Both the position numbers and the translations under genes were made by a program. Below are positions 4,060 to 12,392 of a DNA stretch of 12,392 nt, piece by piece. Under the pieces are notes generated by a model. It did no database searches, was not told where the DNA came from, and worked only from the letters and a program-made list of their open reading frames with translations. Positions within the stretch are counted from its first letter, which is position 1, and every line of letters begins with the position of its first letter. The DNA lies in NCBI GenBank assembly GCA_013166835.1, contig JABLTI010000104.1, positions 1 to 12,392 of the forward strand. Direction: 5' to 3'. Source of the stretch: Promethearchaeati archaeon (lineage in GTDB: Archaea > Asgardarchaeota > Heimdallarchaeia > JABLTI01).

Positions 4060-4485
4060 TTAGTGTTTAACGTCAAAATCTGGACTGACATTACCACGGC
4101 ATTTTCCATAGAAGAAATCTTTTGCACACCAAGTGGTTTTACCGCCTTCAAATGCAAAATTAATTTCACCAGAGTCATAAATTACTCTATCATTTATCTC
4201 AACAACAATCTTATTCAGAATCCATTTATCAGCATGAACACTACGTTCTTTCTTAATGCAGAAATATTGGAACCAATCAGATGTTAAGCCTTCAGGAATA
4301 TCTAAATCGAAATCATCGGTTCGACCTTTTTCAAAATCATCACAGAATGGATGATCTAAATCCCATGTGTGTTCTCCAATGTACAATTTTATTGGGTCAT
4401 CAGTACCACTTCCACGTTTATTATCAGTTGTAACTGTCACTTTCATCTTGTGTATAATTTCACACATATCATCGTCTTCAGACAT
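4060..4485 (-). CDS. Stand-alone PLAT/LH2 domain protein
   Basis: KVTVTT....SGTDDPIKLYI, FEKGRTDDFDL and W.LNKIVV match the PLAT pattern (V.V.T....AGTDA.V.I.L; FERG..D.F; W.L..V.V). ATG start with GGAGG SD at 4499-4495. Confidence 0.8.
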   Translation of the reverse strand: MSEDDDMCEIIHKMKVTVTTDNKRGSGTDDPIKLYIGEHTWDLDHPFCDDFEKGRTDDFDLDIPEGLTSDWFQYFCIKKERSVHADKWILNKIVVEINDRVIYDSGEINFAFEGGKTTWCAKDFFYGKCRGNVSPDFDVKH

Positions 4486-8913: not shown

Positions 8914-9426
8914 TTACTTGCCATATAATTGCTTGAGCAAGATTTCTCTAGCTATAGATTGGAAAGCTCTCTTAACACCTATTCCTTTTGTAGCAATTGT
9001 TTCATAAACAGGATAACCATCAAGACCAAGTCCGGAAAGCATTTCAGGTCGAGTAAGAGCGCCTGGAACATCCCTTTTATTCAAAGTAACAACAATGGGG
9101 ACTTCTTTTCCAAAACTATCTCCTAAGAAATCTTTGAGTTCATCAACGGATTCTTGATTATATTTTTGCATTTCTGGAGTGGAATCTAGCATAAGAATGA
9201 TTCCATCAACGCCACGAAGGATAACTTTCCTTTGGCTTTTGTGTCTAGTCTGTCCAGCTACTGTATAGGCATCAAGAATAACTCGTCCAGAAGCTGAAAA
9301 TGGGGTAAAATCGAAATAAAGAGTTCTACCAGTAGGATCAGCGATTGATGTAAAACCACCTTTAGTTAAACCTTCAACCTGGTCGTAGAGCCATCGTAAA
9401 CCTGTAGTTTTTTCATTGTGTGCTAT
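8914..9426 (-). pseudogene. 5'-truncated MglA-type small GTPase
   Basis: The frame of the 92-aa ORF stays open to 9426 (stop at 9429-9427) and reads IAHNE-KTTGLRWLYDQVEG...TGRTLYFDF...YTVAGQ...ILRGVDGIILMLDS...TLNKRD...ETIATKGIGV. It has MglA-type G2-G5 motifs but only the KTT end of G1, and no in-frame start codon upstream of KTT. Confidence 0.75.
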
Positions 9427-9557
9427 TTATAAGGGAAATTATATGCGTTATATGTTTTTCTATCTAGTGCTACGGTTAATTCTTTTCGTGTTGGATAAAA
9501 AAACTATTGGTTGGTGTAAATCTTATCCTTAAGAATACTTTCTTTGCTACTAAATAA

Positions 9558-11042
9558 TCATCTTGTAGGATGCCTATCAGGATGCTTGTCTGAGTAGTAT
9601 CTAAGTAAATCTGTGAAACCAAAATCAAGACTTGTTTGTTGTGCTTCCTTTAATTGTTGCTCGATCATGTAGATTTTTTGTGTTGTTTTCTCTCTTCTTG
9701 AGAAATAAACTTCTGGAGTAATACTTCGATCATTAAAAGCTTTAATTAGTTCACGAAGTGTATCTTTAGCAGCTTTCAATTCAATCTTGAGATTCATTAC
9801 TTCTTCAGATTCAACTTGTCGTCTAGGTTCAATAGGTCGTTCTCTGAGTTGCTGTGTAGAGGGTGAAAAAGGTATTTCCTTCAAATCCTTAATACGTTTA
9901 TCGAGCTTGTCTTTTAGATGACTAAAGTTTAGTGTAGCTCGGTAATTTTCCATCATATATGGATCTGTAACAATATAATTTTCATTTTCATTAAAAAGAA
10001 TACCAAAAATGAATTTGAGTTTAGTAATGATGTCATCTGGACATTTTATTTTGATTAAACTCTTTTCAGACATGTTGATGAATAATTGATTCCCAGTGAA
10101 AATGTTACTCTTGGAATCTATATCTTTAATCATGGAAATAGGAACAGATTTAACTTTTTTATTGAGTAGTTTTGATCTAAGTAAGAAGTACATTTTCTTA
10201 TTAGTTATAAATAGAGTACCAACTTTCTTGCGTTTATCTGATGGGAAGGCCATTTTAATATTTGGAAAAGCAGCAATCTTGAGTTCATATATTTCAGGTT
10301 CGAATTTCTCAACAACATTATCGAATAATTCTGAATATAATTTTAATTCTTTTACTTTTACTTCAATGTCTTCCAATTCATTCAAAGGATCACTAAGATA
10401 ATCAGTGAGAATATTGGAGTAACTTAATGCATGAGTTTTAATAATTTTGAGAGTTTTATCGATTCCCCTTAATTTACTGACGGAAATATTTTGATTGAAG
10501 ATAAGAGTTCTAGCATCTTGATATATATGTTGACTAACTTTGTCTAGGATTTCTGATGCTCTTTGAATTATTTCATAAAAGAGATCTTGTATGCGCAATA
10601 AGTTACCTTCAATGTTTGGATAAAGCCCAAAACGTTCTCTACGCATATGTTTTGCTTGAGTTACAATTTCAGAATACTTATTAGCAAAAGCTTTGATAGT
10701 ATCCAGACCTGTGCTTAACGAATTAACGTTACTGCTAAATTCCTCCGTAAGTCCATCGATTTTTCTCTTTGAATCTTTGATCTTAATTGATGAACACATT
10801 GGACATCGTTTCAAAGTTTTCTCAGCAGTTAGATGGTTTATTTTCCCGCAAATTTCACACTTATTTCCAATGCTTATGTGCGAACACTCATTACAATAGG
10901 TACAATCAGTTTTCTCAGAAACAATGCAAGCAGTGCAAAACGTGCCACCACATTCTTCACAATAATATAGATAATCATTATATTGATAACACTTTAAGCA
11001 TTTTTTATTCGAATCATATCCCAATTTTAGTCTCACGCTCAA
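9558..11042 (-). CDS. Multidomain protein: FYVE-like multi-zinc finger, helical/coiled-coil stalk, PH/GRAM-like domain and steadiness-box-like C-terminus
   Basis: 494-aa ORF. Six CxxC pairs in residues 15-83; helical residues about 90-245; GTLFITNKKMYF followed by beta-rich sequence (about 248-350); AAKDTLRELIKAFNDRSITPEVYF...KIYMIEQQL (424-464). The ORF itself is secure, the domain calls are by eye. Confidence 0.7.
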   Translation of the reverse strand: MSVRLKLGYDSNKKCLKCYQYNDYLYYCEECGGTFCTACIVSEKTDCTYCNECSHISIGNKCEICGKINHLTAEKTLKRCPMCSSIKIKDSKRKIDGLTEEFSSNVNSLSTGLDTIKAFANKYSEIVTQAKHMRRERFGLYPNIEGNLLRIQDLFYEIIQRASEILDKVSQHIYQDARTLIFNQNISVSKLRGIDKTLKIIKTHALSYSNILTDYLSDPLNELEDIEVKVKELKLYSELFDNVVEKFEPEIYELKIAAFPNIKMAFPSDKRKKVGTLFITNKKMYFLLRSKLLNKKVKSVPISMIKDIDSKSNIFTGNQLFINMSEKSLIKIKCPDDIITKLKFIFGILFNENENYIVTDPYMMENYRATLNFSHLKDKLDKRIKDLKEIPFSPSTQQLRERPIEPRRQVESEEVMNLKIELKAAKDTLRELIKAFNDRSITPEVYFSRREKTTQKIYMIEQQLKEAQQTSLDFGFTDLLRYYSDKHPDRHPTR

Positions 11043-11355
11043 ATTGTTTGTGGTTCCAAGTCGTTAATACAAAAGTATTCAACGAGTGATACTATCATCT
11101 AAATGTAATCTCATAAGCACAGATTCTTACATCTAGTAATTTTATTTCATATAAAAGAAGGCTTTATTTGAAAATAAGTGATTGTAATATGAGGATGTTT
11201 TCCTAACAATGCTTAAAATAACTGTTTTTTCTTGCTTTACATTATAAAGCAAACATTTTAGGTATGCTTTAAACGAAAAATAAATGAAGGGTGAAACTAA
11301 ATAATTAATACCTAAGTGAAAATATAATATTGTGAATGAAGGTGTGCTAAAAGGG

Positions 11356-12392
11356 ATGGAAGACAAGAAATCATCAGACTTCCTTTGGAAGATTGTACTC
11401 TGCGGTACAAGTTTCGTAGGCAAAACAACAGTAAGAAAAAGAGCTATGGGAGAGCATTTTGCAGAAGAGTATATTTCAACCGTAGGAGCTGATTTTTCTT
11501 CATATAAATTAAAACTTGGAGATTTGACTATAGGATTTCAAGTATGGGACTTAGCTGGTCAAGACAAGTACAAATATATTCGCTCAAGTTTTTATGGAGG
11601 AGCAACAGGATGCTTCTTAGTTTTTGATGTTACAAATCCAAAATCCATGAAGGATTTATCCTCATGGGTGGACGAAGCAATTAGATATTCAAATGGAACT
11701 ATTGAGATTTTTGTGATTTGTGCGAATAAAATTGATTTGAAAGATAATCGAGAAATAACAAAGGATATGGGAGAACAATATGCTTTAGCATTAAGAGAGA
11801 GCTCTGGTCTTCAATGCGAATATATTGAAACATCTGCACTAACTGGAGAAAACATTGACGTTGCTTTTGATTTAATGGCAAAGTGTTTACTTGAACGTGA
11901 AGGAATTAGTCCTGTTGGACCAAAAGAAGAAATTATTGAGGTAGCTGAAGAAAAGACCGCAAGTGTTACTGAAGCTCAAATAGAAGGATCCGAACCTTTG
12001 GCTGTTGAAAGTATTAGCGAAACATCCACTACCAAAGTAATTGATACAATACCATCGACAAGTAAATCAATAATCATAGAGGAAGATAGTGGGGAAGCAA
12101 CAGAGAAATTAATTGCAGAAGTAATGGCTGTTCTCGATGAAACTGATGAGATAATTATCGGACGGGAAAAAACAGAAGATGGAGAACGAGCAATAACAAT
12201 TACCAAGGATGAAATAACAGAACGCGTTGTAGACGACGATGAACAAGCTCCTGAAATTAGTAACGAATTGGAACGAGTTCTGGGACAAATAAATATCAAA
12301 CTTGACAGCTTAACTGATCGATTAAAAGGTCTAGAAGAAGAAATTTCTCAAGTAAAACCTGAAGAATTAGTGGCAGAACCAGAAGAGGAAAT
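11356..12392 (+). CDS. Rab-like small GTPase with long acidic C-terminal extension (3' partial)
   Basis: Manual translation gives 345 codons with no stop up to the window end: KIVLCGTSFVGKTT (G1), YISTVGADF (G2), QVWDLAGQ (G3), ANKIDL (G4), ETSALTG (G5). GAAGGTG SD-like motif at 11338-11344. In-frame GTG alternatives at 11332 and 11344. Missing from the ORF track. Confidence 0.92.
   Translation, partial: MEDKKSSDFLWKIVLCGTSFVGKTTVRKRAMGEHFAEEYISTVGADFSSYKLKLGDLTIGFQVWDLAGQDKYKYIRSSFYGGATGCFLVFDVTNPKSMKDLSSWVDEAIRYSNGTIEIFVICANKIDLKDNREITKDMGEQYALALRESSGLQCEYIETSALTGENIDVAFDLMAKCLLEREGISPVGPKEEIIEVAEEKTASVTEAQIEGSEPLAVESISETSTTKVIDTIPSTSKSIIIEEDSGEATEKLIAEVMAVLDETDEIIIGREKTEDGERAITITKDEITERVVDDDEQAPEISNELERVLGQINIKLDSLTDRLKGLEEEISQVKPEELVAEPEEE

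Follow-up and report, generated by a model that had tools for sequence, protein, structure and literature searches.

What role can a protein play in an archaeon when it joins a Cys-rich module, a long helical stalk, a pleckstrin homology (PH) domain and a C-terminal helical hairpin in a single chain? The question is raised by the gene at 9558–11042, on the reverse strand of contig JABLTI010000104.1, from a Promethearchaeati archaeon of the class Heimdallarchaeia (assembly GCA_013166835.1; 3.56 Mb in 260 contigs, 84.75% complete). This entire contig (C12), 12,392 bp long, is the window of our analysis. An earlier note on the locus had listed a Cys cluster, a helical stalk, a PH/GRAM motif, a Pro/charged linker and a C-terminal hairpin, all of which are present in our alignments and AlphaFold2 models. 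[quoted passage not shown] Judged by its architecture, the gene is a member of the Asgard family Znr_CC_PH_SB (also Znr_PH_CC_SB; asCOG cog.011556; Makarova et al. 2024, mBio 15:e00335-24, PMC10936438). Its product is probably the membrane-anchoring third subunit of archaeal ESCRT-I, with predicted binding to membrane, zinc and partner proteins.

The gene consists of 494 codons and a stop, with a TTG start; all features described within it lie on the same strand. A word-indexed search returned 30 full-length homologues, 45–95% identical over 88–100% of the protein, and every named one is labelled 'Asgard group' or 'Candidatus Heimdallarchaeota'; an NCBI 'hypothetical protein' among them is 88% identical. 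An exhaustive phmmer search yielded 61 representatives at E ≤ 1e-3, mostly with 20–29% identity. Two profiles were used, A1 for the close subfamily and A2 (35 sequences) for the broad family. Within the genomes of the phylum, A2 matches 376 of 400 at E ≤ 1e-6, including 85 of the 90 with at least 90% completeness and at most 5% contamination. The narrower A1, at E ≤ 1e-5, matches all 11 other genomes of the family to which the window genome belongs (f1), against 1 of 49 from the other families of the class: the protein family is therefore near-universal yet fast-evolving. The gene is genuine and conserved, and the 30 full-length homologues together with the 376 genomes rule out a pseudogene or a chance reading frame. 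Metatranscriptome contigs from runs X19 and X20 map within it at 10249–10689, a hint of transcription from libraries that can also contain DNA; gene parts not covered in these runs carry no meaning.

We modelled the whole protein with AlphaFold2 from a 25-sequence alignment (mean pLDDT 81.0, pTM 0.63), and residues 1–245 separately from a 30-sequence cross-family alignment (pLDDT 86.4). The C-terminal hairpin, residues 413–473 (9624–9806), folds into two helices in the model, 413–437 and 443–473. It was characterised by hhalign, Pfam, PDB profiles and a complex model, and four independent lines agree in identifying it, at the level of sequence and prediction, as a steadiness box. The profile of residues 415–468 in A2 aligns with the Vps23 hairpin of the same lineage (alignment A3; hhalign 94.1%, E = 1.2e-7, 55 columns) and with the N-terminal hairpin of Vps28 (A4; 74.1%, E = 2.8e-5), A3 and A4 each holding 23 sequences taken from neighbouring genes in relatives. 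Searched against the window's own genome, the C-terminal part of A2 finds Vps23 (3.6e-7) and Vps28 (1e-3); conversely, Pfam Vps23_core (PF09454) ranks the window gene third in this genome, behind Vps23 and Vps28, with E = 0.018 on the hairpin segment. The same Pfam family is found in the homologues P0039 (7.2e-6 and 26.3 bits, the best), P0043 and P0060, and in 3 of 25 close ones. Among PDB chains, A2 reaches the yeast Vps23 core (2p22_A, 4.5e-4; 2f66_A, 2.8e-3; 2caz_A, 7.1e-3) and human TSG101 (6vme_B, 3.2e-3), always at profile positions 356–463. These matches were obtained with the broad profile; A1 has no significant PDB match, its best being NurA at 0.0039, on the stalk. Together they bear out the steadiness-box-like hairpin that the earlier note had seen.

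The turn of the hairpin, F-x-D-G/R-x-I-[ST]-P-x-x-Y, presumably recalls SHOCT in a superficial way, and the best direct Pfam match of the protein is a bacterial PH family, bPH_3. Both features would suit an ordinary prokaryotic bPH-plus-SHOCT protein, membrane-associated and with no ESCRT link, a reading to which we give almost no credence. The same turn is also present in the Vps23 and Vps28 of this genome. Pfam gives no SHOCT match at E ≤ 10 on the C-terminal segment, HMMER filters removing most matches above 0.1, and SHOCT is absent from the 25 families listed for 25 homologues, where Vps23_core is present instead. Moreover, in three other families the gene has ESCRT genes as neighbours, and the named homologues are all from Asgard archaea or Heimdallarchaeota. 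The hhalign match to Vps23 and the ESCRT neighbourhoods refute the bPH-plus-SHOCT reading.

Two further proteins of the same genome end in steadiness-box-like hairpins. Encoded at C200:25816–27042 (reverse strand) and C130:30814–31944 (forward strand), they match the C-terminal part of A2 at E = 6.3e-8 and 3.1e-4; one of the pair has 408 residues and is very acidic, the other has 376 and is helical. They may be further ESCRT-I-docking adaptors like those listed by Makarova et al.

The candidate partners of the window protein are encoded elsewhere in its genome. Contig C110 carries in a row UEV-Vps23 (18122–18865), Vps28 (18881–19519), a 121-residue open reading frame (ORF) and Vps22; Vps4 and Vps25 lie on C125, and Snf7 genes on C147 and C221. 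We modelled Vps23 (residues 140–247), Vps28 (1–110) and the window protein (365–494) as a three-chain complex, each with its own alignment. The score is 0.66, the median of three runs (0.66, 0.70 and 0.66); the best of three controls reached 0.00, and the score falls to 0.00 when Vps28 is swapped for an unrelated protein. Partner pLDDT is at least 63, and contacts agree between runs to at least 67%. The predicted interface places residues 443–462 of the window protein against residues 196–233 of Vps23. This multimer prediction, one of the checks that the earlier note had proposed, supports binding to Vps23 and Vps28, as a prediction.

The ORF between Vps28 and Vps22 (C110:19526–19891, forward strand; L005:11526–11891) is itself conserved, at 100–121 residues, and matches no Pfam family. 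All 11 of the f1 loci have a detectable copy, and a weak match is seen at one locus of family f2 (f2, f4, f5 and f31 being other Asgard families that we compared); a similar small ORF occupies the equivalent place in G040.

How would such a subunit reach a membrane? The PH domain, residues 248–352 (9987–10301), consists in the AlphaFold2 model of seven strands (255–333) and a helix (336–350), with pLDDT of about 86–92, so that the range of about 248–350 given by the earlier note was accurate. All 18 PDB matches of the full model at E ≤ 1e-3 in Foldseek are chains containing PH or GRAM domains, with the PH-like domain of Lam6 on top (1.2e-4). Among the chains that superpose tightly are the GRAM-PH domains of MTMR6 and MTMR2 (rmsd 2.6–3.0 Å over 94–111 columns), as well as USP37, Pob3 and BEACH-PH; BBS5 is matched too. 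Pfam, run on the segment alone, gives bPH_3 (8.4e-4) and GRAM (0.01); in the 25 homologues it finds GRAM in 14 and bPH_3 in 8 (best 1.2e-6). The modelled fold belongs to the GRAM-like PH class, which is shared with the GLUE domain of Vps36, in line with the GRAM/GLUE type that the note had assigned. Pfam Vps36 GLUE (PF11605) has no match on the window protein, Vps36_ESCRT-II (GLUE) is matched weakly by P0045 (1.8e-4) and by one of the 25 close homologues (0.033), and no Vps36 GLUE chain is among the 49 Foldseek matches listed. The segment is strongly basic: its net charge is +10, with a median of +10 and a range of +7 to +16 among 25 homologues, and 12 of its columns are at least 80% Lys or Arg; conserved Lys columns lie at 255, 263, 282 and 298. 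All other modules are near neutral. Absence of a PH fold, absence of steadiness-box similarity and ordinary PH-plus-SHOCT relatives were the three outcomes that the note had set against its own proposal; we looked for each, and found a PH fold, a similarity to Vps23 and relatives of another kind.

The PH domain is preceded by the helical stalk, the 'CC' of the family name (residues 91–244; 10311–10772), modelled as an antiparallel bundle with three long helices. Its helices span 91–107, 109–138, 142–177 and 188–244, with pLDDT mostly between 85 and 96, and R134 and E145 are invariant. Helices in front of a PH domain, in a gene flanked by two genes for small GTPases, could be read as a DH-PH-like guanine-nucleotide exchange factor for these neighbours, and Foldseek with the full model does list collybistin, Trio, Dbs and Vav1 at E of 1e-4 to 1e-3. 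Those alignments, however, have an rmsd of 17–22 Å and TM-scores of 0.2–0.3. With residues 1–245 alone there are 0 matches at E ≤ 1e-3, and the list holds generic helical bundles and no DH chain; the RhoGEF family is likewise in no Pfam list of the window protein, its segments or its homologues. An exchange factor is thus extremely improbable and effectively refuted, the DH-PH matches stemming from the PH domain alone.

Behind the PH domain, residues 353–395 (9858–9986), defined by alignment and AlphaFold2, include a helix at 374–392. The segment is strongly conserved, with D360, Y362, D386, L387, K388 and P391 invariant or nearly so (D-L-K-x-x-P), and matches no family. A Pro/charged, disordered linker follows (396–412; 9807–9857; pLDDT below 50 at 396–409), whose length and sequence vary among homologues. 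Beyond the hairpin, a C-terminal tail of low confidence (474–494; 9561–9623) ends in a nearly invariant Arg.

The N-terminal module, residues 12–90 (10773–11009), was delimited by its six conserved CxxC pairs, in alignments and profile matches, and is small and β-rich in the AlphaFold2 model. Residues 15–83 hold 13 Cys, of which 12 form the pairs 15/18, 28/31, 36/39, 50/53, 62/65 and 80/83; C47 is peculiar to the window's own family. In 30 sequences from several families 11 of these Cys are invariant, and C39 is kept in at least 90%. Six pairs would suffice for three zinc sites, with a Cys pairing suggested by the spacing. The first four, C-x2-C-x9-C-x2-C-x4-C-x2-C-x10-C-x2-C, have the spacing of cross-braced fingers of the B-box/RING type, and the last two resemble RNA polymerase subunit P and Zn_ribbon_8 (Pfam, 0.065 on the zinc segment). 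Spacing and weak profile matches thus suggest a B-box/RING-like unit followed by a zinc ribbon. Pfam zf-B_box turns up in 9 of the 25 close homologues and in 4 of the 20 distant ones, of which P0052 exceeds the curated cut-off (24.8 against 24.1 bits); PDB profile matches of the module are the RING of RNF4 (5.5e-6), a PHD finger and the B-box of TIF1-β.

The Cys cluster had been called FYVE-like, and this part of the earlier note does not hold. The module does share with the FYVE domains of Vps27/Hrs and EEA1 the character of a small, Cys-rich zinc module (two zincs in FYVE) in a membrane-trafficking context, but it has six CxxC pairs instead of four. A Pfam scan of residues 1–86 gives no FYVE family at E ≤ 10, and FYVE is absent both from the 25 families listed for 25 close homologues and from the Pfam lists of distant ones. 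Neither the close nor the cross-family alignments show a basic R(R/K)HHCR-type motif around the third Cys, which we take to be the signature of phosphatidylinositol 3-phosphate binding in FYVE domains. With B-box, RING, PHD and zinc-ribbon families nearest and no FYVE profile match, we reject the FYVE reading.

The zinc fingers, the GLUE-like PH domain or both could also bind ubiquitinated cargo, with the hairpin tethering the protein transiently to ESCRT-I. An upstream, ESCRT-0-like receptor for cargo or ubiquitin would differ from a membrane-anchoring ESCRT-I subunit in its purpose, not in its family membership; we regard it as unlikely. According to the accessible parts of Makarova et al. 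(2024; PMC10936438), the GLUE domain of yeast Vps36 and its NZF fingers bind ubiquitin and Vps28, and Asgard archaea have no identifiable Vps27 or Bro1. The weak Vps36_ESCRT-II matches given above point the same way. Against it, no ubiquitin-binding motif was identified in the window protein, no NZF or other ubiquitin-binding family appears in any Pfam list for the protein, its segments or the 25 homologues, and the 49 listed Foldseek matches contain no GLUE structure of Vps36.

In several other lineages the gene is linked to ESCRT genes. In family f31 Vps4 lies within 1.5 kb of it at 21 of 25 loci, which are kin and not independent of one another. In G040 (f2) two Snf7 genes, Vps4, Vps25, Vps22 and a Vps23-Vps28 fusion follow within 7 kb. 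In G032 (f5) the next genes encode a membrane protein with a Yip1 domain, a UEV protein and Vps28, and in G012 a Vps23-Vps28 fusion is 6.3 kb away. The survey of homologues and synteny across Asgard genomes that the earlier note had envisaged thus finds the family in 376 of 400 genomes, with Vps4 or ESCRT clusters beside the gene at loci of other families than f1.

A number of points weigh against an ESCRT-I subunit. In the window genome and the rest of f1 the gene adjoins no ESCRT gene and is flanked by two small-GTPase genes. The PDB matches to Vps23 and TSG101 are mixed with coiled-coil matches of similar E-value (NASP, designed bundles). On the Pfam side, bPH_3 reaches 15.8–20.2 bits on the window protein, below its cut-off of 23, and Vps23_core reaches 15.4 bits on the hairpin, under a curated cut-off of 26.8; the latter is also missed by the Vps23 (22.3 bits) and the Vps28 (18.6 bits) of this genome, and the Vps23_core model is therefore insensitive in this lineage. 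The complex model may pass through its likeness to solved eukaryotic ESCRT-I headpieces, and a homologous hairpin that is not a true partner could also score well. Of 80 solved complexes 58 attain this score mark, as do 2 of 110 mismatched pairs, but the calibration did not span three-chain jobs or user-made alignments. Finally, a 2:1 Vps23:Vps28 trimer suffices in Odinarchaeota, as described in the available portions of Hatano et al. (2022; PMC9192718), and a third subunit is therefore not required there.

The first of these points admits a reading of its own, namely that the f1 protein has left the ESCRT pathway and serves as a membrane adaptor or effector of the two flanking GTPases, its hairpin being used for self-association. 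Gene order is kept across f1: a divergent Ras-like GTPase, the studied gene and, downstream, an MglA/Arf-like GTPase, with the Ras gene adjacent at 9 of 10 loci and a small GTPase adjacent at 10 of 10. A Pfam scan of the window detects no ESCRT gene on the 12.4-kb contig. The block continues with AhpC, a DUF255 thioredoxin-like protein, UDP-glucose dehydrogenase (UGDH), a PLAT-domain protein, TFIIB, the RFC small subunit and AdoHcy hydrolase. The entire 12 kb, with AhpC, DUF255, UGDH, PLAT and TFIIB included, is equally conserved, and the synteny therefore reflects close kinship, not a specific linkage. In addition, the GTPase neighbours are not found at the f4 locus L030 nor at the 25 f31 loci, and the hairpin is still well conserved and can be modelled onto the genome's own Vps23 and Vps28. 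In f1 the gene has left the ESCRT cluster; that its product would have left the pathway with it seems to us rather improbable.

Both GTPase genes are incomplete in the window. On the reverse strand, at 8914–9430, a 92-residue 'Arf-like' ORF (8914–9192) represents the 3′ portion of a gene for an MglA/Arf-like small GTPase of about 187 residues, and this gene is intact in 10 of 10 f1 relatives at 79–99% identity. The window is without 77 nt between 9412 and 9413, in which the GTPase has its TTG start, its first strand and its P-loop. The relative L025 has exactly 77 additional bases at the equivalent position, and in a contig of run X1, which may be the source sample, 77 letters likewise separate the two sides; contigs of X5, from an independent study, break at 9412/9413, and their loose ends continue unlike the window. 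The absence is either a gap in the assembly or a strain variant of the contig, not a truncated gene. On the forward strand, at 11332–12390, the divergent Ras-family GTPase is cut by the contig end. Its full-length counterpart, L025:7844–9601, has 586 residues, in which a Ras domain is combined with a long acidic stretch, probably disordered, and with a zinc ribbon (CxxC...CxxC) at the C-terminus. Further off, the reverse-strand gene at 4060–4485 encodes a 141-residue protein with a PLAT/LH2 domain (E = 1.5e-6, above the cut-off), kept in the f1 block; PLAT/LH2 is a lipid-binding β-sandwich known mainly from eukaryotes.

As the membrane-anchoring third subunit of ESCRT-I, the protein would work through its three modules. 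The steadiness-box hairpin would pack with the homologous hairpins of Vps23 and Vps28 to form the ESCRT-I headpiece. The PH domain, GRAM-like and strongly basic, would keep the complex attached to the surface of an acidic membrane. Held at a distance by the stalk, the three-zinc module at the N-terminus may bind another partner: cargo, ubiquitin or an ESCRT component.

The earlier note did not recognise this architecture; exactly such an arrangement is described in the accessible text of Makarova et al. (PMC10936438), so that neither the architecture nor the ESCRT-I assignment, published in 2024, is new. There the family cog.011556 is Asgard-specific, absent from eukaryotes and likely ancestral in Asgardarchaeota; it is called 'a likely ESCRT-I component', and its PH domain is 'expected to be membrane associated'. 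Like that family as described in those parts of the paper, the window protein has three zinc units, coiled-coil, PH domain and C-terminal steadiness box in this order, and it too is, as far as its homologues carry names, confined to Asgard archaea, widespread there and often encoded beside ESCRT genes. Nothing material separates the two, apart from the f1 copies having moved from the ESCRT cluster. From spacing and weak matches, the first two zinc sites would in our reading form one cross-braced unit of the B-box/RING kind and not two separate ribbons.

In the literature that we searched, the family has a computational description and no experimental work was found. A 2023 preprint on Asgard Vps23 names GLUE and Vps36 in its introduction and references only. 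The discovery value of our analysis is small because architecture and assignment have been in print since 2024. What it adds is a count across the phylum, explicit homology at profile level to Vps23 and Vps28 of the same genome, the distribution of charge on the PH domain, a complex model that was run with controls and names an interface, and the departure of the f1 gene from the ESCRT cluster. The candidate that obviously suggests itself for the membrane-binding part of archaeal ESCRT-I is Znr_CC_PH_SB, matched in nearly every genome of the phylum; since the genome of this copy also encodes Vps23 and Vps28 and a concrete interface is predicted, the idea can be tested at the bench.

Asgard archaea have no Vps37 and no full-length Vps36, and a factor that was not determined probably bridges their ESCRT-I and ESCRT-II, according to the accessible portions of Hatano et al. 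(PMC9192718). The comparison with these two eukaryotic proteins invites a further, tentative step. Outside the window, the proteins P0045, P0092 and P0093 represent a rare Vps36-like fusion, in which a head of zinc module, stalk and PH domain is joined to winged helices of the Vps22/36 type, with no steadiness box. The head is 23% identical to residues 26–310 of the window protein (E = 6e-16), and the C-terminus is matched by EAP30 in Pfam (1.8e-11) and, among PDB chains, by yeast Vps22 (5.5e-6), human SNF8 (8.6e-6) and human Vps36 (3.4e-3). The three, all from assembled sequencing runs, are the only 90%-identity clusters found; the fusion is unmentioned in the main text of Makarova et al. 2024 and of Hatano et al. 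2022, as far as these were available. From the complex model and this rare fusion it is conceivable, if rather doubtful, that the window protein fills the Vps37 slot as membrane anchor in a 1:1:1 Vps23-Vps28-Znr_CC_PH_SB headpiece, and that its portable head was the archaeal forerunner of the head that combines GLUE domain and zinc fingers in eukaryotic Vps36. The consulted parts of these two Asgard ESCRT papers state neither point.

With eukaryotic Vps37 (Mod_r) and the core of Vps23/TSG101, the window protein shares a helical region and, after it, a hairpin at the C-terminus that is homologous to the steadiness box, and in our model this hairpin takes its place beside those of Vps23 and Vps28 in a three-hairpin headpiece like that of eukaryotic ESCRT-I. 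It has no UEV domain, and its zinc and PH modules are found in none of the eukaryotic ESCRT-I subunits. Whereas the eukaryotic ESCRT-I stalk is intermolecular, its long helices are predicted to form an intramolecular bundle. Vps36/EAP45, in ESCRT-II, offers the other parallel: a GRAM-like PH domain and, in yeast, NZF zinc fingers within one ESCRT protein, with expected membrane binding. There, however, the C-terminal part consists of EAP30 winged helices and not of a steadiness box, and the zinc fingers are inserted in the PH domain, whereas the zinc module of the window protein is N-terminal and its GLUE score in Pfam is insignificant. Altogether, this single protein would perform in archaea the jobs that eukaryotes assign to Vps37/MVB12 and to the GLUE domain of Vps36.

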